A DNA stretch of 62,748 bases from Tepidisphaeraceae bacterium (GCA_036794395.1 DAIRGS010000003.1:1-62748), one strand, 5' to 3'. Shown: positions 5,564 through 40,569, numbered from the stretch's first letter. The notes: generated by a model not told the origin, from the letters alone. Numbers and translations: made by a program.

Positions 5564-6079
5564 TCATGGAAGGATTATCTCGAGTGCCCCTTGCGTCTTC
5601 ACCGGCGAAGTTGCTTTTGATGCGGTCGATTCGGAGGAAAGGACGTCGTCGAGAGGGGATGACGCGCTAGTCGCGATTGTTCCAGTCGAAAGCACATCGT
5701 CCAAAGCCGAGGTTCCACGCGCTGGAACGCCGATCGCACGTTTCATAAGCTCATCCCAAACCATTCTGCGTCTCTGGCGCGCGGAGTTTGCCGCATCGTT
5801 CGCCTCCCACATACTCGTGGCGTAATTCTCAGTCATTTTGTCGATTGCGGTAGACATAGCCGACCCTTGCCCCTCTCCCTTAACGGCCAGGCCAACTGAT
5901 GCGGAGGCAGCGGCGGTCCCCGCACCTTTCCACAGATTTGATTCAAACTCGTCCCGTTTAGCCTTTTCCTCCACAATAAGCTGCGCGCTAACCGAATATA
6001 GCTGCGCGGTAGACGCATCAGATAAATCTGAAGAAAGACGTTGGTTGGTGTTGGCCGTGATCTGCCGAGTCGCATTCAT
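5564..6079 (-). CDS. Hypothetical protein (171 aa), translationally coupled to the upstream gene
   Basis: The internal ATG at 6079 overlaps the TGA of the upstream ORF (TGATG). The part of the 281-aa track ORF upstream of this ATG overlaps the upstream gene and looks like high-GC read-through. Confidence 0.55.
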   Translation of the reverse strand: MNATRQITANTNQRLSSDLSDASTAQLYSVSAQLIVEEKAKRDEFESNLWKGAGTAAASASVGLAVKGEGQGSAMSTAIDKMTENYATSMWEANDAANSARQRRRMVWDELMKRAIGVPARGTSALDDVLSTGTIATSASSPLDDVLSSESTASKATSPVKTQGALEIILP

Positions 6080-6720
6080 CAAACCGTCCCACGACTGCTT
6101 GCCCTGTGCCGTCCATGTGCCGCCTGTTGTTTGGCCGACTGAAGCTTGGAGGCGGCTTGCCGGGCATCGAATTGCTGTTGCTGCACCGCCTCGGCCTGCC
6201 GCTGGCCGGCGTAAATACGGTCCCAGGATTGAATGCTTTGCATCGACCTTTGAAACGACTGATCCACCGGTGAGGGCGTAATGCCGCCTCGTTGACCTGC
6301 ACCCGGATTGGTGCCGTTCTTCGTCACTTCGATGCCATCGCCGATCGAAGGTCCGACTTGACGCCAGCCGGGCGTATCGTTTGGCCCCGTCGCTTCGTGA
6401 TATTGCCACTGATATTTCGATCCGTTGACGGTTCCACCGTTGCCTGGTGCGTTTGAACTGGTCTGATTGCTTGCTGATTTACTGCCCGAATTGCTGCCGC
6501 CGGCAGGCGGGCGCGCCGTGCTCTGCGACCCAGCGGAGGACGTCCCGGAACTGCCTCCCCCGCTGGAAGCGCCGCTCGATGAGCCGCCGGAAGAACCATG
6601 CGAGGCGCCGCCGCCACTTGGCGGAGCGGCGGAGAGGTTTGAAATACTGAAGAATGCGCCCAACGACAGCGATGCAATGATTGCGAGCGAACGACGACGG
6701 GGGAAGTGTTTTGCACCCAT
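6079..6720 (-). CDS. Secreted Gly/Ser-rich hypothetical protein
   Basis: 213-aa ORF with a signal peptide (RRRSLAIIASLSLGAFFSISNLSAA), a long GS-rich low-complexity linker and a Gln-rich C-terminus. Confidence 0.6.
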   Translation of the reverse strand: MGAKHFPRRRSLAIIASLSLGAFFSISNLSAAPPSGGGASHGSSGGSSSGASSGGGSSGTSSAGSQSTARPPAGGSNSGSKSASNQTSSNAPGNGGTVNGSKYQWQYHEATGPNDTPGWRQVGPSIGDGIEVTKNGTNPGAGQRGGITPSPVDQSFQRSMQSIQSWDRIYAGQRQAEAVQQQQFDARQAASKLQSAKQQAAHGRHRASSRGTV

Positions 6721-7136: not shown

Positions 7137-8438
7137 ATGGCAAGGTGCTTACTGACGTTGTCCGTAGTTTTGATGCTGGTCACGATGGCGGCTGGCGCGC
7201 AACTCACCATCCGTGGCGGCAATAATACCTTCCAAAATCAGGTCACGATCACCATCGAAGGCGATTTCCGCGTCATTCGATCCAACGGCATTCCCAATCA
7301 CCCAACCGGCCAATTCCCCGGCCGCGGGAATCCCAACACCATCTCGCCCCAGAAATACGAGTTTCGCGTCATGGCAAATCCCAAACCGGCCGCCGCCAGC
7401 ACACCGCTCATCCTTGGGCCTTTCGGAATCGCAGTGAACGGCGTCCTGTTCGATCCCGGCGCGGATGAATGGTGGAACGGAGATCGCACCTCCGGCTGGC
7501 AATATGAGCCGCTCAAGATGGCGCCACTCTTCCTGGGAACGGATTCCAGCCACGCACATGTGCAGCCCAACGGCGCATATCACTACCACGGCATCCCCAC
7601 CGGACTGCTCTACACCCTCACCGATGGCAAAGAAAAAATGGTGATCCTCGGATGGGCCGCCGACGGCTTTCCCATCTACAACAACCTCGGTCACACAAAG
7701 CCCACCGACGCCGCCAGCCCACTCCGAATCCTCAAATCCAGCTACCGCGTCAAGCCCGGCCAACGCCCCAACGGCCCCGGCGGAAACTACGATGGCGCAT
7801 TCGTCGCCGATTACGAATACGCCCCCAACACCGGAGACCTCGACGAATCCAACGGCATCTTCGGCCCAACCCCCGAATACCCCAACGGAATCTACCACTA
7901 CGTGCTAACCGACCAGTTCCCCTACATCCCGCGCCAATTTCACGGAACACCCGACAAGAGCTTCATGCGCGGTCCAGGTGGCGGCCGTGGCCCCGGCGGC
8001 CGTCGCGGTCCAGGCCAGGGTCCACCCAACGGCGGCTTCCACCTGATTCCCCCCTTCGCCGAAGAACCCCTGAACCTCACCAATTACCAGCGTCAAAAGA
8101 TCACCCCCATCGAAGGCCAGGCAAGAAAAACTCTCGAAACCATCCTCACTCCCGATCAACTCAAAACGCTAAAAGAAACACGCCCTCCTCGCGGTGGCCC
8201 CGGTGGCGCAGGTGAACGGGACGGAGGCAACCCCCGACAAAGATCAACCCCGCCACGCGGCGGCATCCATCTGATTCCCCCCTTCGCCGTTGCGAAATTA
8301 AACCTCACCGATTCACAAGAGAAGCAGATCGCCGAAGCCCAAGCCATCGCCAAAGAACAGCTCGCGAAAATCTTAACCCCCGAGCAATTGAAGACACTCG
8401 AAGAAGCCCGCCCACCCCAGGGCGACCGCATCCCGTGA
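7137..8438 (+). CDS. Secreted YHYH-domain protein with Pro/Gly-rich linker and two C-terminal LTxxQ (Spy/CpxP-like) modules
   Basis: Signal peptide, then NGAYHYHGIP and NGIYHYVLT motifs. Two ~55-aa repeats follow: GGFHLIPPFAEEPLNLTNYQ...LTPDQLKTLKETRPPRG and GGIHLIPPFAVAKLNLTDSQ...LTPEQLKTLEEARPPQG. Confidence 0.8.
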   Translation: MARCLLTLSVVLMLVTMAAGAQLTIRGGNNTFQNQVTITIEGDFRVIRSNGIPNHPTGQFPGRGNPNTISPQKYEFRVMANPKPAAASTPLILGPFGIAVNGVLFDPGADEWWNGDRTSGWQYEPLKMAPLFLGTDSSHAHVQPNGAYHYHGIPTGLLYTLTDGKEKMVILGWAADGFPIYNNLGHTKPTDAASPLRILKSSYRVKPGQRPNGPGGNYDGAFVADYEYAPNTGDLDESNGIFGPTPEYPNGIYHYVLTDQFPYIPRQFHGTPDKSFMRGPGGGRGPGGRRGPGQGPPNGGFHLIPPFAEEPLNLTNYQRQKITPIEGQARKTLETILTPDQLKTLKETRPPRGGPGGAGERDGGNPRQRSTPPRGGIHLIPPFAVAKLNLTDSQEKQIAEAQAIAKEQLAKILTPEQLKTLEEARPPQGDRIP

Positions 8439-8459
8439 CTCCGGCAGATAAATCCCCGC

Positions 8460-9260
8460 TCATTTCAGCACCGGCAGCAAAATCACCTGACGCAGGTCCA
8501 TCACAGGGCCGGTCGCGGCCTTGGGTTTGAGAGTAAGGGTTTGGATGCCGGGCTTGTCGAAGGTGACCGTGCCAACTTCCAGGAAGGTGAAGGTGTGGAA
8601 GCTGCCGGTGTTTTTGGTCGAATAGTTGATGGTTTGATCGGCGACAGTGATCGTGATCTCCTTGGTTCCGGGGCTGCCCTGCATGGCGACTACGTTGAAT
8701 TTGCCGGGTTTTTTCACCTCAAAATCCCAACTCACCCAGTCTTTCGGATTGGACCAGTAACCGAGTGTGTTTTTGTCGGGGCGAAATTCATATCGAAGAT
8801 TCACGCCGTGAACCGTTGCATCGTGTGCGTGCAGCGTAATGGACAGATCGTCGGCCTGAATGATCGGCTTGCCCTCCGGCGCCGGCGTAAAAACCAGTGA
8901 TTTGACGACCAGCGGCGCCTTGGCATCGGCCGGCTCGGTCTCAATCGCGAGTGGCCGCTCATTGGCAGTATCAATGTAAATCCGCCCGAGTTTAGCCGCT
9001 GCCCCATCCGTCGTGCCGGCCATATCCTTTCCCGCGATCGTAAGCTTCACCTTTCCTGCCGCGGCGTTCTCCAACCGCGCTTCCACGTCATACATCCCCC
9101 ATCGAGAAGGCTTGTATTTTCCCTGTACCTGCGCGCCAGCCTGAGACGGAGTCCATGTGACGACCCCATCACCATCGCTCACCGCGCTATCCGCCGCACG
9201 GATGATCGATGTGAATGCCGAGACGATGACCCAGATGCACACCAGTAATCGAACGCGCAT
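8460..9260 (-). CDS. Secreted hypothetical beta-sandwich (carbohydrate-binding-module-like) protein
   Basis: The start was moved to the internal ATG at 9260, which gives a clean signal peptide (MRVRLLVCIWVIVSAFTSIIRAAD). The upstream 86 codons of the track ORF run through a palindromic repeat. Confidence 0.65.
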   Translation of the reverse strand: MRVRLLVCIWVIVSAFTSIIRAADSAVSDGDGVVTWTPSQAGAQVQGKYKPSRWGMYDVEARLENAAAGKVKLTIAGKDMAGTTDGAAAKLGRIYIDTANERPLAIETEPADAKAPLVVKSLVFTPAPEGKPIIQADDLSITLHAHDATVHGVNLRYEFRPDKNTLGYWSNPKDWVSWDFEVKKPGKFNVVAMQGSPGTKEITITVADQTINYSTKNTGSFHTFTFLEVGTVTFDKPGIQTLTLKPKAATGPVMDLRQVILLPVLK

Positions 9261-9346
9261 GGCAGGTTCCTCACATGAAGGTCGAAGGGAATTCGCGACC
9301 GCGAGCATACTCGAAACAGTATGCGTTAAAAACGCGCTTCGCCCCG

Positions 9347-9506
9347 CCTTGGCGGCTCGGTTTAGGGCAATCGCATGTGCCGTCTTTGGGAGTGCGAGGC
9401 TCCCGCCGAGCCGCGTTTTTCGGCAAAGCTTCAGCTCGGCGGGAGCCTCGCACTCCCAGGATCCATGCACAATCGCTCCATATGCGATTGCCTTGGCGGC
9501 TCGGTT
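9347..9506. repeat. Composite palindromic intergenic element (24-bp perfect stem flanked by 16-bp direct repeats)
   Basis: gggagtgcgaggctcccgccgagc (9388-9411) is the perfect reverse complement of gctcggcgggagcctcgcactccc (9434-9457). ccttggcggctcggtt occurs at 9347-9362 and 9491-9506. gcaatcgcat and atgcgattgc lie between them. Confidence 0.8.
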
Positions 9507-9564
9507 GCACCGGGGCAACTCACGCGATAACGTTCGACCTCAGTTCTCAAACGACGGAGGCGAT

Positions 9565-9960
9565 ATGCGATGGTTCGGTTTTGTTTTGGCGGCAACAATT
9601 CTGGTTCCAGCCCTCCAGGCCGTCGCCGCAGGCACGGCAGCGGGAGCGGGAAAAAAAGAACTCAATCACGTCGTGCTCATCAAATTCAAACCAGCCGCCA
9701 CCCCCGAGCAGATCAAAAAAGTCGAAGATGCGTTCGCCGCCCTCAGGGAAAAAGTTCCCGGCGTCACATCCCTTCGCTATGGCACCAACGTCAGCCCCGA
9801 GAACAAAAACAAGGGATACACCCACGTCTTTATCCTCACTTTCGCCACCGAAAAAGACCGCGACGGATACCTGATCCACCCCGCCCATAAAGCCTTCGGC
9901 GGAATCCTGGGCCAGGTCATGGACGACGTGCTCGTCGTCGATTTCTGGTCGCAGGACTAA
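9565..9960 (+). CDS. Secreted Dabb (stress-responsive alpha/beta-barrel) domain protein
   Basis: ATG at 9565 is preceded by GGAGG. Signal peptide MRWFGFVLAATILVPALQAVAA. Dabb pattern HVVLIKFK...GTNVSPE...GYTHVFILTF...YLIHPAHKAF. Confidence 0.8.
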   Translation: MRWFGFVLAATILVPALQAVAAGTAAGAGKKELNHVVLIKFKPAATPEQIKKVEDAFAALREKVPGVTSLRYGTNVSPENKNKGYTHVFILTFATEKDRDGYLIHPAHKAFGGILGQVMDDVLVVDFWSQD

Positions 9961-9972
9961 TGATGAAACGAG

Positions 9973-9997
9973 AACCCCCGGACATGCCGGGGGTTTC
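9973..9997 (+). terminator. Rho-independent-terminator-like hairpin after the Dabb gene
   Basis: aacccccgg acatg ccgggggtt: a 9-bp GC-rich stem with a 5-nt loop. The T residues at the 3' side are few, so the T tract is weak. Confidence 0.5.
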
Positions 9998-10026
9998 GAT
10001 AAGTGCTAATGAGCACAAAACTAAAG

Positions 10027-10047
10027 TACCCCCAAGGGGGGTTGAAC
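10027..10047. repeat. Degenerate copy of the tRNA-Glu 3' end (outer att remnant of element A)
   Basis: tacccccaaggggggttgaac versus the tRNA 3' end tacccccaaggggagtcgaac. The first 13 nt are identical and 19 of 21 match overall. Confidence 0.6.
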
Positions 10048-10450
10048 ATTCTTCAAAAACAGCCGAAAAACAGGCTGTTTCGGACCTGCGCGGCACAGAT
10101 TCCGGCACACCTGCGGACGAATCGGCAAGCAATCGACAACCGGCGGACCCCGAGCTTGCGGCGGTGGTGACGGCATGGCCAGACTTGTCGGCGGCGGTGA
10201 AGGCCGGCATCCTGGCGATGGTGAAGGTGTCTGGCCGGGGCTGACTGTCCGCCGGGGCGGACACCTGAACCCTTTCGAGCCTTTGACCATGCGGGCGGAG
10301 GATTGGGATTGAATCGCGACGCCCGTAAGATTGAACCATTGGGACGGCGGGCGCTGTTGCAACGGTGCCGGCCAAGCGGTTCGGGCGGCGGCGGCGTTCC
10401 TCACCTGTCCGCTGCCCCGCCCGGATCGACCCGAACCCGACAGGTGAGAC

Positions 10451-11827
10451 ATGGACCAACCCGCGCCCGCTGCGCCCTTACCGCCCGAGGCCATTCGAGC
10501 CGAAACGCTACGCCTCAAACTGGCGGAATGGCGCATTGAACTTACGGCCGGGCGAACGGTGCAACCCGCCGACCCGTCCGACCCCGATCCCTTGGCCAGT
10601 GAGTGGATGCGGTACCGCAAGGCGGAAGATGACTTTTGGCAGCATCACGCGGGCAAGTTGCCGCCGGCTTCCTGGCATACCGTCCAGACGCCCGTTGATT
10701 TCTACTGGTGGCTGCTGGGGCGCATCGAGTGCCTGAACCAGTTGTGCCCGGACCTGATCGGCCCGTTTCATCCTGGCCGTCGCTATCCTGTCCCGCTTCG
10801 ATGGATCAATGAAGCGTGCGACCTGGCCGACCGCTACCGTATCCCAAGGGGTTTTGCGAAACCGCCTGCCGACCTGACGCCCCAACAGGCGCTTTCAATC
10901 TTCGATGCCTTGTTACTCGGAACGGACAAGGAAATCCGCCGGCGCAACGGCGGCCTGCCATGGCGAGGGACGCTGGCCATGGGGGCGGCGGCGCAGCAAT
11001 TCGACCGGATGGCCAACGCCTTTGACGACCGGGGCCGAGTTGCGGCAAAGGCGGCGCACCTTCAAACGGACGTGAACGAGCTGGCGACGCAGGCGGGGCG
11101 GATTCTCTATCAGGCAATCGACGGCGGCGCGTGGCGGGGACAATGGCCGTGGGCGCGAGGGCGCAAGCCGGCCCGTGACCTGTTCATTTACAAGGACGAT
11201 TTCAGCATGATTCCGAGCGATCAAGTTACGGACATGGAGGCGAACCCTGAGCGCTTCCGTGACGGCGAGCGGTTTCGGCTTCCCCGGCCGGAAGTCCTAC
11301 CCGACGAACTCATCAAACCCGATCGCATGGCGTCCGCCTTCTGGATTGCCGCCATCAACGTGGCGGGACAGTACCCCAACGCATTCCGCATCAACCCGTA
11401 TCGCTTGGACGTGACCGACGCGGAAGGCGACGAAGCCGACCGGCTGGCGTTCTGGCGACGACGGGCGGACGTGTTTGCCGATGCCTGCCGCTTCATTTCC
11501 ACCTTGCTTCGGCAACAGCCGCCGCTGCCTGACGAGCCGGCGGGCGCGGCCACCCCGCCCCCGAGCTTAGACCCTGAAAAAGCAAAGCACTCCCCGGAGG
11601 AATCCGGCGGCCGGCGGCGCGGAAGGCTGACCAAGGATGATGGCAAAGCGAAGCGGGCGCACCTGCTGGCGACGATCCGCGAGCATCCGAGCTTGAAAGA
11701 TGATGCCCGCAAGCTGGCGAGCATGATCGGCGTCAGTGAATCGTCGGCGCGCCGATGGATTAAGGATGAGGAACGCCAGTACCGGGAGAGCCGCGCCGCC
11801 CAACCGGCGGAAGACGACGAAGAATGA
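10451..11827 (+). CDS. Hypothetical protein with C-terminal HTH-like segment
   Basis: 458-aa ORF. The C-terminus KLASMIGVSESSARRWIKDEE resembles a helix-turn-helix. No other recognisable motif was seen. Confidence 0.6.
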   Translation: MDQPAPAAPLPPEAIRAETLRLKLAEWRIELTAGRTVQPADPSDPDPLASEWMRYRKAEDDFWQHHAGKLPPASWHTVQTPVDFYWWLLGRIECLNQLCPDLIGPFHPGRRYPVPLRWINEACDLADRYRIPRGFAKPPADLTPQQALSIFDALLLGTDKEIRRRNGGLPWRGTLAMGAAAQQFDRMANAFDDRGRVAAKAAHLQTDVNELATQAGRILYQAIDGGAWRGQWPWARGRKPARDLFIYKDDFSMIPSDQVTDMEANPERFRDGERFRLPRPEVLPDELIKPDRMASAFWIAAINVAGQYPNAFRINPYRLDVTDAEGDEADRLAFWRRRADVFADACRFISTLLRQQPPLPDEPAGAATPPPSLDPEKAKHSPEESGGRRRGRLTKDDGKAKRAHLLATIREHPSLKDDARKLASMIGVSESSARRWIKDEERQYRESRAAQPAEDDEE

Positions 11828-11865
11828 ACGCGAATTGACAATTCCGAAAACCGAACGAACCCACA

Positions 11866-11890
11866 AAAAGCCCCGGAATCCGGGGTTTTT
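11866..11890 (+). terminator. Rho-independent terminator
   Basis: aaaaagccccgg aat ccggggtttttt: a GC stem followed by a T6 run, 39 nt after the stop at 11827. Confidence 0.7.
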
Positions 11891-11958
11891 TCATTTAATA
11901 ATGCGCCCGAAATGCAAATTCGACCGGTTGGTTGAAGGACCATCAACCGGAGATTTGC

Positions 11959-12168
11959 ATGAGACGAAAACGAAAACGGATCGACCCGGACCTGACCCGC
12001 CGCGATGAAGCCCCGTACTGGGCCGCGGCGCTGGTGCTGGCGATCCGTGCTGGTGACGCGAGCCGGGCCGACAAAGCCCGATCTGAGTTGGAACGGCTGG
12101 GGGTAAACCTGGCGACGTGCGGCGCGATCCACAATCGGGCGCGAAAGGGGGCGGGCAATGAGCGTTGA
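11959..12168 (+). CDS. Small hypothetical protein (69 aa)
   Basis: Internal ATG of the track ORF 11932-12168. It overlaps the next gene by 11 nt. Confidence 0.4.
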   Translation: MRRKRKRIDPDLTRRDEAPYWAAALVLAIRAGDASRADKARSELERLGVNLATCGAIHNRARKGAGNER

Positions 12169-12367
12169 ACCCCTGACACCCATTGGCACGCCGCGCCTGC
12201 TGTTCACGCCCCGCGAAGCGGCGAAGGCGCTGAGCGTTTGCGAAAAGACACTTTGGAGCCTGAGCAAGCGCGGCGACCTGCCGGCGGTGCGGATCGGGCG
12301 GGCGGTGCGGTACGACGTGGCGGACCTGCGAGCCTTCATCGACGGGCAGAAGGGCGGTGCCCGATGA
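12158..12367 (+). CDS. Excisionase-family (AlpA/MerR-like) HTH DNA-binding protein
   Basis: LLFTPREAAKALSVCEKTLWSLSKRGDLPAVRIGRAVRYDVADLRAFID matches the excisionase-type HTH pattern. The stop overlaps the next ATG (ATGA). Confidence 0.8.
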   Translation: MSVEPLTPIGTPRLLFTPREAAKALSVCEKTLWSLSKRGDLPAVRIGRAVRYDVADLRAFIDGQKGGAR

Positions 12368-14445
12368 ACCGCGAGACGAATTGGCTGCGGGTGCGGAATG
12401 ATCGGCCCTGCCCGATCTGCCAGCACACCGACTGGTGCATGGTAGCGGCAGACGGATCGGCGGCGCTGTGCGCTCGCATCGAACAAGGCGCGGCGACGAA
12501 GACAAAGGGCGGGTGGGTACATCGGCTGACAGAATCGGCCGAGACGCAACCCAACAGAACGCGAAGTGTTGGGAAGGCGAAAACGTCCGCCCGGAAGGGA
12601 ATGACCACAAAAGCGTACCCAACTGCCGACGCTGCGATTGAAGCCGCTGGCCGGCAGGCCGGTGGTGATGCGGTTGCGCAATGGAGCTACCACGGCCGCG
12701 ACAGCACCGAAGCCCTGCGCGTGATCCGCTTCGCCCTGCCGAACGGCGACAAGCAATACCGGCCTATCCACCATGCGAAAGACGGCTGGCGGATCGCCGA
12801 TCCTTCCGGCCCGCTGCCGCTGTATCGGCTGGGCGACCTGCCGGTGACGGGCACGGTATGGGTGACAGAGGGCGAGAAAGCGGCGGACGCTGCCCACGGT
12901 ATCGGGCTGCCAGCTACCACGTCGGCGCACGGTTCGGGCGCTGCCGAGAAAACCGATTGGACGCCGCTGGCCGGGCGGATGGCGTGCATCTTGCCCGACG
13001 CCGATGAGCCGGGGCGGAAGTACGCGCAGGACGTGGCGCGGTTGCTGGCGAAGCTGGACCCGCCGGCCCGCGTGCGGATGGTGGAACTTCCGGGACTGCC
13101 GGACAAGGGTGACGTGGTGGAGTACATCGACGCCCGCGCCGGGCAACCGCCCGCCGCGATCCGCGCCGACGTGGAAGCCGTTGCGGCGAAAGTGCCGGAG
13201 TTGTCCGCCGGCGACGTGATCGGCGGGCCGGTGCTGGTGTGCCTGGCCGACGTGGAGGCGCGAGAGATTGATTGGTTGTGGCCGGGCCGCGTGGCACTGG
13301 GGCGCATCACGCTGCTGGTGGGCAGGCCCGGCGAGGGTAAATCATTCCTGACAACCGATATGGCTGCGCGGGTGACGACTGGCACGCCCTGGCCCGATGG
13401 AACGGATTGCCCCGCCGGATCGGTGATTCTCGTTTGTGCCGAAGACGACCCTGGCGACACCATCCGCCCGCGACTAGACGCACACCATGCCGACGTGCGG
13501 CGCGTTCACCTACTGTCGGCCGTTCGACGGATCGGCGCGGATGGTAAGCGGCATGACGTGATGTTCACTCTGGCCGACGTGGTGGCGCTTGAAGCGGCGT
13601 TGAAGACGCATCCCGATTGCAAGCTAATCGTGGTGGACCCCATCGGCAGTTTCCTTGGCGGCGACACCGATTCCCACCGCGACAACGAAGTGCGTAGCGT
13701 GCTTTCCCCGGTGGGCATGTTGGCAGAGAAGTACGGGCCGGCAGTGCTGGTTGTGGCGCATCGACGGAAGAGCGCGGGCAGCAACGCGGACGAAACCGCA
13801 CTGGGAAGCCGGGCGTTCACTGGCATTGCCCGAGCCGTCTGGCACCTGAGCCGCGATACCGAAAACAAGGCCCGCCGGCTGCTGTTGCCGGGCAAGAACA
13901 ACCTGGCACCGGAAGGCGACGGGCTGGCGTTCACGATTCACGGCGAACGGCCCGCCATCATTTGGGAACGCGATCCGGTGACGATGAGCGCGGATGACGC
14001 CTTGGCCGTTGAGAACGGCGGCGGTGGTGACGGGCCGGGAAGGCCGGCGGAAGAACGGGACAACGCGGCGGCATGGCTGGCGGCGGAACTGGCGGACCTG
14101 CAACCGCATCCCGTGGCGGACCTGCGGCGTGACGCAACGGCGGCCGGCATCGTCTGGCGAACGGTGCAACGGGCGGCCGTGACGCTACAGGTGATCCGCG
14201 AGCGGAGCGGTTTCGGGGGCGCGTTCATCTGGCGTCTTCCGAAACCCGGAACGCCCCTACCGGGTGACGCCCCGCCCATACGTGCCACAAGCCCGGAGAG
14301 TAGCAATTCTGGCACGAATGGCACGATTGACGAATCACGCGAAAAACACGGGTTTTCGTCGGCTGCGAGCGTGCCATTATCCCATACGTGCCACAATGAT
14401 TCACTTGGCACGAATGGCGATGGCAGAGAGCGGGGTGAGTTATGA
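12364..14445 (+). CDS. Primase-helicase: Zn-finger plus Toprim plus RecA-like (AAA_25/RepA-type) ATPase
   Basis: CPICQHTDWC...C zinc motif. Toprim motifs VWVTEGEKAADAA and ILPDADEPGRKYA. Walker A LLVGRPGEGKSF and Walker B-like VILVCAEDD. The start was chosen at the ATGA overlap; the track ORF begins at 12238 inside the previous gene. Confidence 0.8.
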   Translation: MNRETNWLRVRNDRPCPICQHTDWCMVAADGSAALCARIEQGAATKTKGGWVHRLTESAETQPNRTRSVGKAKTSARKGMTTKAYPTADAAIEAAGRQAGGDAVAQWSYHGRDSTEALRVIRFALPNGDKQYRPIHHAKDGWRIADPSGPLPLYRLGDLPVTGTVWVTEGEKAADAAHGIGLPATTSAHGSGAAEKTDWTPLAGRMACILPDADEPGRKYAQDVARLLAKLDPPARVRMVELPGLPDKGDVVEYIDARAGQPPAAIRADVEAVAAKVPELSAGDVIGGPVLVCLADVEAREIDWLWPGRVALGRITLLVGRPGEGKSFLTTDMAARVTTGTPWPDGTDCPAGSVILVCAEDDPGDTIRPRLDAHHADVRRVHLLSAVRRIGADGKRHDVMFTLADVVALEAALKTHPDCKLIVVDPIGSFLGGDTDSHRDNEVRSVLSPVGMLAEKYGPAVLVVAHRRKSAGSNADETALGSRAFTGIARAVWHLSRDTENKARRLLLPGKNNLAPEGDGLAFTIHGERPAIIWERDPVTMSADDALAVENGGGGDGPGRPAEERDNAAAWLAAELADLQPHPVADLRRDATAAGIVWRTVQRAAVTLQVIRERSGFGGAFIWRLPKPGTPLPGDAPPIRATSPESSNSGTNGTIDESREKHGFSSAASVPLSHTCHNDSLGTNGDGRERGEL

Positions 14446-19091: not shown

Positions 19092-19369
19092 ATCCCGACG
19101 CCTTCAGCGGTTGGTGCCCACTTCCGCCTTCGGGACGCCCCAGCGTGATCGTTGATGAGCATGAAAGGCATTATTACCAACTCCGGCAGCCGGCAAGAAC
19201 GCGCGCAGCTGCGCGGTGACGCGGCTAAGATGGGGAGTCAGACGCCGTTCTCGGCCGAAGAATCGGCCAGTGGGACACCCCGGCGCGGCCGACAAGTTCA
19301 GTTGAGAACGGATGCCGCTTACCGTACAATTCACTAATTCATGGTTCCGGACCCGTGACAGGAGACCCG

Positions 19370-19615
19370 ATGGCAGAAGCAGATAAACATCCGTCGCACT
19401 TTGAGATACACGTGGATGGCGTTCGAATCGAAGTGACCGAGCAGAATCTGACTGGTGCTCAGATCAAGGCAAAAGCGGGCAAAGACCCGCAGTACCAACT
19501 CTTTCTTGAAGAGAAGGGAAACGCTCCGGATCAACTGATCGCGGACAACCAAACGGTGAAGATTCAGAACGGCCTGCATTTCTACACGGTTCCACCCGCT
19601 ACCTTCGGAGCATGA
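19370..19615 (+). CDS. Ubiquitin-like beta-grasp protein, single multiubiquitin-type domain (81 aa)
   Basis: FEIHVDGVRIEVTEQNLTGAQIKAKAGKDPQYQLFLEEKGNAPDQLIADNQTVKIQNGLHFYTVPPATFGA fits the Multi_ubiq pattern (I.V.G......TG.qI...AG......L......g...i.d...V.i..G..F...P). GGAG lies 5 nt upstream of the ATG at 19370. The stop overlaps the next ATG. Confidence 0.75.
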   Translation: MAEADKHPSHFEIHVDGVRIEVTEQNLTGAQIKAKAGKDPQYQLFLEEKGNAPDQLIADNQTVKIQNGLHFYTVPPATFGA

Positions 19616-20004
19616 TGGGTCTCGTCGAAGAACATTTTGAGTCGCTCAAGACAAGGGATCGCTTCCACGAGGCGACGTTAATCGCCGTACCAAACGGCAC
19701 CTATGTCGTAAGGATTCCGCGCTTCCCGTTGCCGCAGGGGTGGAATCGCTCTGAGACCACTCTGTACTTCGTGATACCCGTTGGGTATCCGGTGGCAAAA
19801 CCCGATACGTTCTGGACCGAACCAGGTCTTGCCCTTGCGAGCGGAGCACAACCGCAAGCTGCGAACCCGGGTGGCAATCACTTGGAGGGGTTGCCGTCGG
19901 GCCTGCTTTGGTTTTCCTGGCATGCAGGCACGTGGAACCCAAATCGGGATAACCTACATAGCTACGTCGGTCTAATCGGAAAGCGCTTTCAGGAATTGCG
20001 ATGA
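19612..20004 (+). CDS. Prokaryotic E2/UBC-like protein (Prok-E2_E-like), no cysteine in the whole protein
   Basis: IPVGYPVAKPDTFWTEPGL ... LLWFSWHAGTWNPNRDNL resembles the bacterial E2 family that accompanies multiubiquitin and JAB-E1. The 130-aa sequence contains zero Cys. ATGA coupling occurs at both ends. Confidence 0.7.
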   Translation: MMGLVEEHFESLKTRDRFHEATLIAVPNGTYVVRIPRFPLPQGWNRSETTLYFVIPVGYPVAKPDTFWTEPGLALASGAQPQAANPGGNHLEGLPSGLLWFSWHAGTWNPNRDNLHSYVGLIGKRFQELR

Positions 20005-21359
20005 CATCCTATGTCTTTCCAGCCGACGAATTGGTCAAGTTGCGACAGTCCTTACTGAGCGAAGGACCGAAAGAAGCGGCTGCCGTCATCCTCGCGGGCC
20101 GCGCCGCGAACAGTGGCAGGACCGCTTTACTTGTGCGCGAATGTTTTCCTGTCCCGAGCGTCGGGTACGCGGTACAAGAATCTCTCCGACTCACGATAAG
20201 ACCTGAATTTTTAGCTCCGCTGTTGAAACGTAGCCGAATAGAAGGCTGGAGCATCATCTTTGCCCATACGCATCCCTTTTGCACGGATGATGTTCGATTT
20301 TCTCCCACCGATGATTCCGGTGAAAGTATTCTGATGCCCTCGGTGTTTAGCCGAGCGCCATCGCGGCCACATGCAAGTTTAGTGCTGGGAAGCCGCGGGT
20401 TCGACGCGCGGGTGTGGACCGCACCATCGTGGCCGCCTGAATCGGTAGACACGATCGTTGAATCAGGGAGTGAACTGCGAGTACACGCCCGTAGGCCCTC
20501 CGAAGCAGTTCCCCCCCCCGATGAGTTTGATCGTAGCGTGCGTGCCTTTGGATCAGCGGGGCAAGCCCTGCTTAAACGGCTTACGGTGGGAATAGTCGGA
20601 CTCGGAGGTATAGGGTCAATCGTTGCTGAAGAACTTGCGCACCTTGGCGTTGGGCGCATGATCCTCCTCGATCCTGATGCGGTTGAGCCCACGAACCTCA
20701 ATCGGCTTATTGGTGCGAACGCAATGAGTGTCGGTCGTCCGAAAGTCGATATCGCGGCGGAACACGTTAGCCGTATTCGACCGTCTATCCAATCAAATGC
20801 CGTAAATGGCAGTATTCTATCGGGTCATGACGGAAAGGCGCTTCTCGAAGCTGACTTGCTATTTGGTTGTACCGACTCACACGGAAGCCGTGCGGTACTC
20901 AACCAAATTGCATATCAATACATGATTCCCACAATCGATCTTGGGATCATCATCAACGTTGTGGACTTCAAAGTTCGGAGCGTCACGGGGCGCGTTCAGA
21001 TGCTCGCTCCGGGCCTTCCATGTCTTGTATGTCAGAACTTACTCAATCCTGAACAGGTGCGTCGGGATTTTCTGTCTCCGAAGGAGCGCGCGCTCGACCC
21101 ATATATTGTGGGTCTTCCTCGACCCGAGCCTCAACCATCTGTCGTTTCCCTAAATGGTACGATGGCATCGTTGGGGGTAACGATGATGCTGGCCGCTGTC
21201 ACCGGCCTGCCGTCTCCAGCGCGTCATCAGGTCTTCATTGGGGAGCGCGGTATTGTCCGAGCTGTCGCGTCCTCGCCGCTTGAAGATTGTGTCGTCTGCT
21301 CTCGCAGTGGTGCGTTGGGCCGTGGCGATCTGTGGCCGATGATGTGGAGGCCGGGGTGA
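20001..21359 (+). CDS. JAB/JAMM deubiquitinase-like domain fused to ThiF/MoeB-type E1 adenylyltransferase
   Basis: N-terminal JAMM motif AHTHPFCTDDVRFSPTDD (HxH...SxxD). E1 Rossmann motif VGLGGIGSIVAEELAHLGVGRMILLDPDAVEPTNLNRL. CxxC pairs PCLVCQN and CVVCSRS. Confidence 0.85.
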   Translation: MTSYVFPADELVKLRQSLLSEGPKEAAAVILAGRAANSGRTALLVRECFPVPSVGYAVQESLRLTIRPEFLAPLLKRSRIEGWSIIFAHTHPFCTDDVRFSPTDDSGESILMPSVFSRAPSRPHASLVLGSRGFDARVWTAPSWPPESVDTIVESGSELRVHARRPSEAVPPPDEFDRSVRAFGSAGQALLKRLTVGIVGLGGIGSIVAEELAHLGVGRMILLDPDAVEPTNLNRLIGANAMSVGRPKVDIAAEHVSRIRPSIQSNAVNGSILSGHDGKALLEADLLFGCTDSHGSRAVLNQIAYQYMIPTIDLGIIINVVDFKVRSVTGRVQMLAPGLPCLVCQNLLNPEQVRRDFLSPKERALDPYIVGLPRPEPQPSVVSLNGTMASLGVTMMLAAVTGLPSPARHQVFIGERGIVRAVASSPLEDCVVCSRSGALGRGDLWPMMWRPG

Positions 21360-22936
21360 ATGTCCCCAAGCGCCCAAATGTGCTATGGATCGGTGACGAG
21401 ATTGCCGATGGGTTGCGGTCTGCCGTGGAGGCACTGGGCCTCACTGTTATATTGACGAACGTTGAGGGGGCCGAGCCGGAGCGTCAGAATCCACATGCTG
21501 TGGTAATGCCATTCGACGGAGTCACAGAGGAGAAATTTCGTGGGCGGCTTGCGCATCTACTCATTCGATCACTGGACAGTGGCGCCCTTGTTACGGTCTT
21601 GGCGCAACCACACACCGATTACGAAGTTGCATCCAAATTGGCAATGGAGCGAGTCCAGGTTGAAGACGCACACGCCACCGATCTTCGTGATGTATACCCA
21701 AACTTTCATGTAATTCATCCTGATGTACGGGAATTGGCCCGGCTACTGCGCGATCACAATCCGGGACTTGCGGCAGACCAGCACCTTGTGCTTCAAGATC
21801 ACGAGGGAAGTACAACCCCGGCGGAAAAGTTGCTCCTCCGAAGGGCGTTCAGTGGATTCGACAGAATCGTATTGAAGCCACTTAGCGGGGGCCGCTCACC
21901 CGATAGCAAGGTCTGGAGAGTCGAGGCCCATGCTGGAGAACGATGTTGCGAGCCTTTCGTCGCCAAATGCGCGCGGCGTCTTACATTGGTCGAAGAGCTG
22001 AACACGTGGCGAGAACACGTGTTGAATTATATTCCATTTCCTTTCCGCGCGCCACCCGTTCCGGAACGTTTTGTGACGGGAGCAACCAGGGCGCTACTAG
22101 TCTCGATGCTTGCAAGTCGAGCACATCGTTTTGACGAATATGTTGCAACCGTCAAGGGTCCAGAACTGGCGATCGCTGCGCTTTTTGATGGTGCGTTGCG
22201 AAATTGGCGGCGCCAATCCCGGCCAGTTCGGCTCCAGCTGGGGCAAGTTTATACTTGGGAAGCCGATCAAGCAGAGCGGACAAGGGAGGCTGATCGTCGG
22301 TCTGGAAGACTCTCCCGAGCTGTGTTGCCGAGTCGTAGTTCTCTGACAGATGCATTTGAGCTTGCGAAGAAACGACAGTCGGACGTGGCAAACCCAGACG
22401 TGCTCTGGGCAATGCTCGCAGCGCTGCCGGAACTTGAGTACCACGAATGTCGTATGCATGGGGATCTGAACCCGCGGAATCTCTTCGTACGCTGGAATGG
22501 GGTCGATATCATCCTGATCGATTTTTCTCATGCTGGCGATTGGGCGCCGATGTCTCGTGATCCCTCACGGCTGGAGGTGAGCACGGCATTCGATGTGTTT
22601 GTCAAAATCAACGGGGAGAAACAGTTCTTAAGTGACGACATTCTCAACCGCTTTTACCGACCGCCACTTCTGCCACCGCGTATTCCGGCTAGTGAGGACG
22701 GGCGATTAGAGGCCGTTCGACAACTTAGGTTGCTCGCCGGTGGCGAGGGAATCAAGAACGCGGAGTATGCGACAACCACCGCCTGTCACCTATTGAAATA
22801 TGCGCGTGCGGGCAGCCGAACGGCAAGCGAAGTTTCGGAAGGTGAAGCGCGACGACTCCGTGGATTGAGCTATCTCCTCTCCGCAAAACTTATTCAATGG
22901 CTGCGTGAAGGGAATAATGCGAGGGGGGGTGACTGA
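21356..22936 (+). CDS. Kinase-like (APH/protein-kinase-like fold) protein with uncharacterised ~170-aa N-terminal domain
   Basis: Kinase-lobe motifs: LKPLSGGRSPDSKVWRV (Gly-rich), FVAKC (Lys), HGDLNPRNLFV (catalytic loop) and ILIDFSHAG (DFG-equivalent). A GTG start at 21356 overlaps the E1 stop (GTGA). The track ORF starts at 21287 inside the E1 gene. Confidence 0.7.
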   Translation: MNVPKRPNVLWIGDEIADGLRSAVEALGLTVILTNVEGAEPERQNPHAVVMPFDGVTEEKFRGRLAHLLIRSLDSGALVTVLAQPHTDYEVASKLAMERVQVEDAHATDLRDVYPNFHVIHPDVRELARLLRDHNPGLAADQHLVLQDHEGSTTPAEKLLLRRAFSGFDRIVLKPLSGGRSPDSKVWRVEAHAGERCCEPFVAKCARRLTLVEELNTWREHVLNYIPFPFRAPPVPERFVTGATRALLVSMLASRAHRFDEYVATVKGPELAIAALFDGALRNWRRQSRPVRLQLGQVYTWEADQAERTREADRRSGRLSRAVLPSRSSLTDAFELAKKRQSDVANPDVLWAMLAALPELEYHECRMHGDLNPRNLFVRWNGVDIILIDFSHAGDWAPMSRDPSRLEVSTAFDVFVKINGEKQFLSDDILNRFYRPPLLPPRIPASEDGRLEAVRQLRLLAGGEGIKNAEYATTTACHLLKYARAGSRTASEVSEGEARRLRGLSYLLSAKLIQWLREGNNARGGD

Positions 22937-22939
22937 ATC

Positions 22940-23314
22940 ATGTACCTCTATCGCGACGTGATTTACACGCAGATCGTGAGAGTCGCCGATCAATCCACGG
23001 CGGCGCAGTTCCTCAAACCGGGGACATTGGTGCTCGTGATGCCGGGCGAGAAGCCGAAATGGTTAAAATTCATTTGTCCATGTGGCTGTGGCGAGGTCGT
23101 TTCGGTCAACTTAATGCCTGGGCAAAGTCGAGCGTGGAGAATTACCTTAGAGCCTAAGCGGGGCCTCTCGTTATGGCCGTCGGTGCACTTGCAAGCGGGA
23201 TGTAAAAGTCATTTCACACTGTTCAACAATACGGCGCGACTCCTCTATCGCAAGCACCCGCAGGCAGATGAAGGGGGTGCGGAGACAAATGACCGCGGGG
23301 GCTGGATTGCATAA
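22940..23314 (+). CDS. Small Cys-rich zinc-ribbon protein (CPCGCG ... GCKSHF; DUF6527-like)
   Basis: WLKFICPCGCGEVVSVNLMPG...WPSVHLQAGCKSHFTLFNN. From memory this matches the small family that trails multiubiquitin/E2/ThiF operons. It begins 3 nt after the kinase-like stop. Confidence 0.6.
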   Translation: MYLYRDVIYTQIVRVADQSTAAQFLKPGTLVLVMPGEKPKWLKFICPCGCGEVVSVNLMPGQSRAWRITLEPKRGLSLWPSVHLQAGCKSHFTLFNNTARLLYRKHPQADEGGAETNDRGGWIA

Positions 23315-40489: not shown

Positions 40490-40496
40490 TATTCAG

Positions 40497-40569
40497 TACC
40501 CCCAAGGGGAGTCGAACCCCTGTCCTCTGGCTGAGAACCAGATATCCTAGGCCACTAGACGATGGGGGC
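40497..40569 (-). tRNA. tRNA-Glu (anticodon CTC), 73 nt, CCA not encoded
   Basis: Manual cloverleaf of GCCCCCATCGTCTAGTGGCCTAGGATATCTGGTTCTCAGCCAGAGGACAGGGGTTCGACTCCCCTTGGGGGTA. The acceptor stem is 7 bp, the anticodon stem is TCTGG/CCAGA with loop TTCTCAG, and the T arm is AGGGG-TTCGACT-CCCCT. Confidence 0.92.

Follow-up and report, generated by a model that had tools for sequence, protein, structure and literature searches.

The open reading frame at 19612..20004 (+) encodes BubB, which acts as E2 in a Bub (bacterial ubiquitination-like; 6E/DUF6527) operon of Type I-like make-up in a Tepidisphaeraceae bacterium. Positions refer to the window, that is, the whole stretch of 62,748 nucleotides that was analysed (GCA_036794395.1 DAIRGS010000003.1:1-62748). 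The gene encodes a standalone E2 of 130 amino acids, and the assignment builds on its translation, a Pfam Prok-E2_E match and matches to PDB structures, both for the sequence and for a structure model. By analogy with the characterised Citrobacter system it is highly probable that this BubB is an active E2, in which Ser102 would take the Ubl BubA from Tyr368 of BubCD as an oxyester, assisted by His104 and Asp65, and pass it on to lysines. This serine/oxyester reading, one of two offered in the original prediction, is right but not new, because a Cys-free E2 that uses Ser is a published defining feature of Bub. The more novel points, which stand beside the main finding, are a kinase-bearing branch of these operons and a Cys-type sister clade of the E2.

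An E2-like protein without cysteine

The BubB reading frame is intact, and ATGA overlaps at both ends couple it translationally to its neighbours. The gene-caller version of the protein (P0001, 129 amino acids) starts at the second ATG, at 19615. Translation of 19612-20004 (+) confirms that there is no Cys codon among the 130 residues, and that the two motifs that had first suggested an E2, PVGYPVAKPD and FSWHAGTWNP, are found at residues 56-65 and 101-110. The absence of Cys is by itself weak evidence and is not statistically unusual: at the Cys frequency of the window (1.27%, from 42 long non-overlapping ORFs) a protein of 130 amino acids lacks Cys with a probability of about 0.19. What gives the absence its meaning is solely the E2-like fold. 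Of the 106 standalone homologues that have the Asp-Ser-His trio described below, 30 are likewise Cys-free. Position 66 is a Cys in many clade members (KPDCFW); its column is variable and also holds M, T, H, N, S or G. The residue is Thr in the BubB studied here, which is wholly Cys-free, and Cys66 is therefore dispensable.

The Pfam family Prok-E2_E (PF14462) matches BubB with 51.8 bits (E 8.8e-14), against a curated gathering cut-off of 25 bits. The match extends over positions 20-121 of the 123 in the profile and was confirmed in the genome copy. A sequence search of the PDB gave Citrobacter BubB as the sole significant match (chains 9eae_C and 9eav_D). The E-value against 9eae_C was 1.2e-4 with phmmer for the single sequence and 1.5e-8 for a profile of 29 homologues, and the identity to Citrobacter BubB, which is the only characterised one, is 22-23%. 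An AlphaFold2 model built on the alignment of 29 homologues had a mean pLDDT of 94.2 and a pTM of 0.88. When this model was searched with Foldseek, 9eae_C was the sole match below E 1e-3 (E 2.7e-7, TM 0.76), and VIA-align superposed the two with Z 15.3 and an rmsd of 2.2 A over 122 of 130 residues. After 9eae_C follows a plateau of UEV and E2 domains with Z 8.5-10 over about 107-111 residues. The modelled fold is UBC/UEV-like and its specific relative is Citrobacter BubB. PADLOC and NCBIfam lack models for BubA, BubB and BubE as well as for the kinase-like protein, and for BubCD they gave only generic E1/ThiF matches.

The structural matches also bear on the other reading in the original prediction, that of a UEV-like non-catalytic protein. 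BubB would then be a pseudo-E2 that no longer catalyses transfer and acts solely as a non-covalent adaptor to BubA or BubCD. The lack of Cys would suit such a protein, and the best structural matches outside Bub are the UEV domains of Tsg101 and Vps23 (Z 9.2-10). However, UEV and E2 domains are tied within about one Z unit and both fall far below the 15.3 of the BubB match, which counts against an adaptor. The residues at the nucleophile site and the state of the operon are taken up below.

The proposed nucleophile site

In the profile alignment Asp65, Ser102 and His104 of BubB pair with Asp70, Ser104 and His106 of chain 9eae_C. This chain comprises residues 230-362 of Citrobacter BubAB, and with the offset of +229 the three residues are Asp299, Ser333 and His335. 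The codons are GAT at 19804-19806 (+) for Asp65, and TCC at 19915-19917 and CAT at 19921-19923 for Ser102 and His104, which lie in the stretch TCC TGG CAT (Ser102-Trp103-His104, 19915..19923, +). According to the study of the Citrobacter system (bioRxiv 10.1101/2024.11.21.623953; Ye, Gong, Chambers and Corbett, cited as Nat Struct Mol Biol 2026 in PMC13373217), the Bub E2s work with a Ser that is invariant and that in Type I is accompanied by His at +2 and an Asp upstream. The active site of Type I BubB is formed by Asp299, Ser333 and His335, Ser333 is structurally equivalent to the catalytic Cys of E2s, and the S333A/H335A variant of Citrobacter BubB has lost conjugation both in vitro and in E. 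coli (bioRxiv 10.1101/2024.11.21.623953). The preprint text deduces the oxyester intermediates from mutants and structures, and not from direct trapping (bioRxiv 10.1101/2024.11.21.623953). The link to Ser-based Bub pathways that the original prediction had drawn is correct.

Conservation points to the same residue. In the alignment of 29 close homologues (A1) the invariant positions include Asp65, Trp100, Phe101, Ser102, His104, Trp108, Asn111 and Asp113, and Ser102 is the only Ser, Thr, Cys or Lys among the invariant columns. The wider family was represented by 199 aligned E2 domains, which are representatives of 445 matches in 1.84 billion proteins together with the fetched loci. Ser is found at the Ser102 column in 150 of these 199 domains and the complete Asp-Ser-His trio in 146. 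Ser102 is the proposed oxyester nucleophile and His104 the proposed general base, and the earlier choice of the Ser in FSWH as candidate is supported.

It had been foreseen that a sequencing or assembly error might conceal a Cys codon. The TCC codon of Ser102 is one transversion from TGC, and the genome is an assembly of 498 contigs that is about 90% complete, so a misread TGC or a decayed gene could in principle hide an E2 of the Cys type. However, Ser occupies the column in 28 of the 28 closest homologues, which come from independent samples, as well as in the 150 family members mentioned above. Moreover, the accompanying His104 is present and is never found together with Cys in the family, and nothing interrupts the ORF, which is coupled to the genes on both sides. 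There is next to no chance that the Ser is an artefact.

Seven representatives do have Cys at the Ser102 column (P0074, P0105, P0116, P0123, P0132, P0151 and P0172). These sequences never have His at +2 and read FCWQ, FCWN, FCWA or FCWG as opposed to FSWH. In a FastTree analysis the Cys-type rows, 11 when locus copies are included, form one clade with an SH-like support of 99, nested among Ser-type rows; this tree is short and unrooted, and no direction of change between Ser and Cys is claimed from it. The Cys-clade loci are L031-L034, with E2 genes at L031:2430-2825 and L033:1587-1970. The operons in L031 and L033 have the order Multi_ubiq - E2 - JAB/ThiF, and neither DUF6527 (BubE) nor kinase-like genes were found in these two operon types. 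The E1s of the clade retain the crossover-loop Tyr and the Zn cysteines, which suggests, as far as the sequences tell, a mixed relay with a Tyr oxyester followed by a Cys thioester. Ser is always found with the general base and Cys never, which marks the column as the site of an acyl-accepting nucleophile. A side effect of this operon content is that the Cys-type clade would escape any census based on DUF6527.

In about 25 full-length members of the family the nucleophile column is occupied by Ala, Met, Leu, Tyr, Gly or Lys in place of Ser or Cys. They usually lack the Asp and the His as well and are spread over several clades (examples are P0042, P0047, P0048, P0083, P0110, P0120, P0131 and P0155-P0157). 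Judging from these substitutions they may be UEV-like and are candidate pseudo-E2s, and to that extent non-catalytic members may exist in the family. The BubB described here is not one of them: Ser102, His104 and Asp65 are invariant in its own clade, and the trio matches the Citrobacter residues whose mutation abolishes conjugation. As side observations, P0083 and P0048 are found on contigs of only 1-2.6 kb, and the nucleophile-less member in L035 adjoins a Gad2/nucleotidyltransferase-like gene, and no E1 is visible there.

The operon and its genomic setting

BubB is the second of five co-directional, translationally coupled genes (19355-23314), with ATGA, ATGA, GTGA and a gap of 3 nucleotides as the four successive junctions. 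The first gene encodes BubA, a Ubl with a single beta-grasp domain (19355..19615, +; Pfam Multi_ubiq 5.5e-12) and a length of 86 amino acids from the GTG at 19355 or 81 amino acids from the ATG at 19370. Its C-terminus reads PPATFG-A, with Gly85 followed by a tail of one residue, Ala86. In 28 BubA homologues the C-terminal Gly is conserved, mostly within PPA[TS]FG, and is followed by a variable tail of 0-8 residues. A search with BubA in the PDB gave nothing significant, the best matches being Ubls of the BilA type (E 0.15).

The third gene encodes BubCD, a fusion of a JAB/JAMM peptidase and a ThiF-type E1 with 452 amino acids (20001..21359, +; Pfam ThiF 1.5e-36). It aligns with Citrobacter BubCD (PDB 9ea4_A, E 1.2e-40) at all published catalytic residues: Glu25, His89, His91 and Asp104 of the JAB domain correspond to Citrobacter Glu28, His91, His93 and Asp104, Arg235 of the adenylation site to Arg227, and Tyr368 of the crossover loop (codon 21102-21104) to Tyr370. 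Two CxxC pairs, Cys341/Cys344 (21021-21032) and Cys430/Cys433 (21288-21299), make up a structural Zn site of the MoeB/ThiF type. Tyr368 and the four Zn cysteines are invariant in the alignment of six E1s (A2), those of the Cys clade included. The first pair, where Citrobacter BubCD has no Cys, lies where the crossover loop begins, so the statement that this loop has no Cys is not strictly true here. In several MAG loci the BubCD gene is interrupted (L024 at 7354-11174, and L003, L005, L012, L014 and L020). In L024 about 2.4 kb, perhaps an insertion, lie between BubCD residues up to about 344 and those from about 343 onward, and in the other loci frameshifts split the gene. Such interruptions could be assembly errors or signs of decaying copies.

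The last gene encodes BubE, a DUF6527 serine protease of 124 amino acids (22940..23314, +; Pfam DUF6527 5.1e-16), with the dyad Ser81/His91 and the Zn ligands Cys46, Cys48, Cys50 and Cys88. At least 95% conservation was found for Ser81, His91, Cys46, Cys50 and Cys88 in 24 sequences, and the spacing of the residues agrees with the published Ser92, His102 and Cys99 of Citrobacter.

All parts needed for conjugation and deconjugation are thus intact, which argues against a non-catalytic BubB, because a pseudo-E2 would leave an intact E1, a Ubl and two peptidases without a conjugating enzyme. Taken together with the invariant nucleophile column and its helper residues, this leaves the reading as a UEV-like adaptor with only a small probability, and this part of the original prediction is not supported.

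With BubB as an active E2, the pathway would run as follows. BubA would be made with its Ala86 tail, which the JAB domain of BubCD would trim so that Gly85 is exposed. The ThiF domain of BubCD would then adenylate Gly85, and Tyr368 in the crossover loop would receive the Ubl as a tyrosyl oxyester. From there the Ubl would move to Ser102 of BubB, activated by His104 and Asp65, as a seryl oxyester, and BubB would pass it to a lysine of a target. Finally, BubE would strip the conjugates by means of Ser81/His91. Every chemical step is put forward by homology to the Citrobacter system, and an identity of 22-23% represents a long distance.

Asp, Ser and His are also the residues of the classical serine hydrolase triad. 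As all three are invariant, and convergent serine chemistry already occurs in the operon in the form of BubE, BubB might be imagined as an esterase, a peptidase or a proofreading enzyme on an E2 scaffold. This is very improbable. Citrobacter BubB is needed to form conjugates and not to remove them, given that S333A/H335A loses conjugation, and the hydrolytic tasks are assigned to other proteins, with BubE in charge of deconjugation and the JAB domain of trimming the precursor. In addition, the sister clade with Cys in place of Ser and no His fits an acyl carrier better than a hydrolytic triad.

The fifth gene of the set, located between BubCD and BubE, encodes a kinase-like protein of 526 amino acids from the GTG at 21356 (21356..22936, +; Pfam TCAD9 4.2e-11 and APH 1.8e-5). 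Lys204, Glu214, His368-Gly-Asp370, Asn375 and Asp389 are invariant in 20 of 20 aligned kinase-like sequences from many phyla, and on these residues the enzyme of the branch is apparently active. The order BubA - BubB - BubCD - kinase-like - BubE recurs in 19 of 26 related genome loci, in three metagenome loci, which brings the number to about 22 loci, and on a JGI contig of 34 kb. It is represented in Planctomycetota, Verrucomicrobiota, Acidobacteriota, Bacteroidota, Myxococcota, Chloroflexota, Bacillota, Patescibacteria, Proteobacteria and others, and the closest locus, from a Tepidisphaerales MAG, has 67% identity. The kinase-like gene is absent from four loci (L014, L021, L023 and L026, from Actinomycetota and a Polyangiales MAG), and in three of these no BubE can be recognised either. 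This five-gene branch is widespread, and it is absent from the preprint on Bub and its supplement, where the words "kinase" and "TCAD9" have zero occurrences (bioRxiv 10.1101/2024.11.21.623953). The paper on ternary systems in eLife 2020 contains no discussion of TCAD9 with the Bub operon. An identification of the fifth gene as CapK was rejected because CapK is an HTH-STAS-GHKL protein encoded upstream together with CapS, and not a protein-kinase-like fold inside the operon.

The relay nucleophiles Tyr368, Ser102 and Ser81 are hydroxyls and not thiols, and could therefore be phosphorylated. The kinase-like protein might switch the pathway by phosphorylating Tyr368 of the E1, Ser102 of the E2 or Ser81 of BubE, or BubA in a PINK1-like manner. 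We regard such a switch as unlikely; if it exists, it is a mode of control that is impossible for a thioester relay. A complex prediction for the kinase-like protein (A3) and BubB (A1) returned "no answer" with a score of 0.00, which speaks neither for nor against an interaction. Additional Bub-like genes adjoin some of the five-gene loci. L017 has genes for a BubA-like protein, a 401-amino-acid E1-only-like protein and a BubE-like protein on the opposite strand (11062-12992, -), L007 has a divergent BubA and BubE pair (5654-6520, -), and L005 has a protein of 359 amino acids with an internal BubA-like domain (10632-11708).

Prok-E2_E occurs in a single copy in the genome. Only one of 40 relatives searched has the family, and this sole positive (G004) is an unpublished genome; no match was found in two genomes of the same genus, which are 82-86% complete. 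The GC content of the operon is 55.4% compared with 59.4% for the window, and two tyrosine-recombinase genes are located just upstream. The low GC content and the patchy occurrence in relatives fit horizontal acquisition. Bub operons have been reported in mobile or defence-island settings, and the setting observed here fits those reports, while a biological function such as phage defence is not demonstrated for Bub operons in the literature. The window has a single tRNA gene, for tRNA-Glu(CTC), at 40496-40569 (-).

Comparison with known systems

The closest characterised protein is BubB of Citrobacter sp. RHBSTW-00271 (PDB 9EAE and 9EAV; bioRxiv 10.1101/2024.11.21.623953), which is the E2 part of a Type I BubAB. 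The two proteins have in common a diverged UBC fold without the C-terminal helix pair (Z 15.3) and the Asp...Ser-x-His trio, and their operons share the JAB-E1 fusion with a crossover-loop Tyr and the DUF6527 protease. Apart from the low identity of 22-23%, they differ in four respects. The present BubB is not fused to the Ubl but has its own gene overlapping the BubA stop codon, BubA has one beta-grasp domain while the Citrobacter protein has three, the four-Cys Zn site is kept in this E1 but missing in Citrobacter, and between BubCD and BubE there is a kinase-like gene. The features of Type I are accordingly found in the fold, the trio, BubCD, BubE and the C-terminal Gly of the Ubl, but not in a fusion of Ubl and E2.

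BubA and BubB are encoded by separate ORFs, which lie in different frames and overlap at ATGA. The 28 standalone BubB homologues are 117-156 amino acids long, the split recurs in at least 27 loci, and in more than 25 independent loci the Ubl ends in the conserved C-terminal Gly with its variable tail. The split is not a frameshift artefact of a BubAB fusion, because the junctions differ between loci, with ATGA here, TAAATG in L001 and ATGAATGA in L002. By analogy, the JAB domain would have the short tail of BubA to remove and would so expose the Gly, just as it does with the fusion. The main text of the preprint states that every Type I operon encodes a BubAB fusion, yet its Table S1 files 31 split operons under Type I (bioRxiv 10.1101/2024.11.21.623953). 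Fusion is therefore not a strict criterion for Type I, and the split arrangement is already catalogued. These 31 entries, for example Hyphomicrobium denitrificans and Verrucomicrobium sp. 3C, are marked only "DUB+E1 fusion". They share with the present operon separate genes for Ubl and E2, the JAB-E1 fusion and DUF6527. They differ in that their gene ids are consecutive, which leaves no place for a fifth gene, with one possible exception.

Type II BubBD of E. coli ZDHYS365 shares the Ser nucleophile in the E2 domain, the crossover-loop Tyr of the E1 and BubE. However, Type II joins E2 and E1 in one protein, has no JAB domain and combines its Ser with Lys and His, whereas here the E2 stands alone, the E1 carries a JAB domain at its N-terminus and the Ser belongs to an Asp-Ser-His trio. 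Canonical UBC E2s (UBE2D2 and Ubc13) and UEVs (Tsg101 and Vps23) have the core UBC/UEV alpha-beta fold in common with BubB. They show no significant sequence similarity to it, and BubB lacks the catalytic Cys but, unlike the UEVs, holds a conserved nucleophile in the active-site column.

The Cys-type Prok-E2_E clade belongs to the same family as BubB and has the same order of Ubl, E2 and JAB/E1, with the Tyr and the Zn cysteines of the E1 retained. It differs by having Cys for Ser102 and Gln, Asn, Ala or Gly for His104. This switch between Ser and Cys as nucleophile inside one E2 family is new here, and provides a natural system for exploring how and why an oxyester relay arose from, or developed into, a thioester relay.
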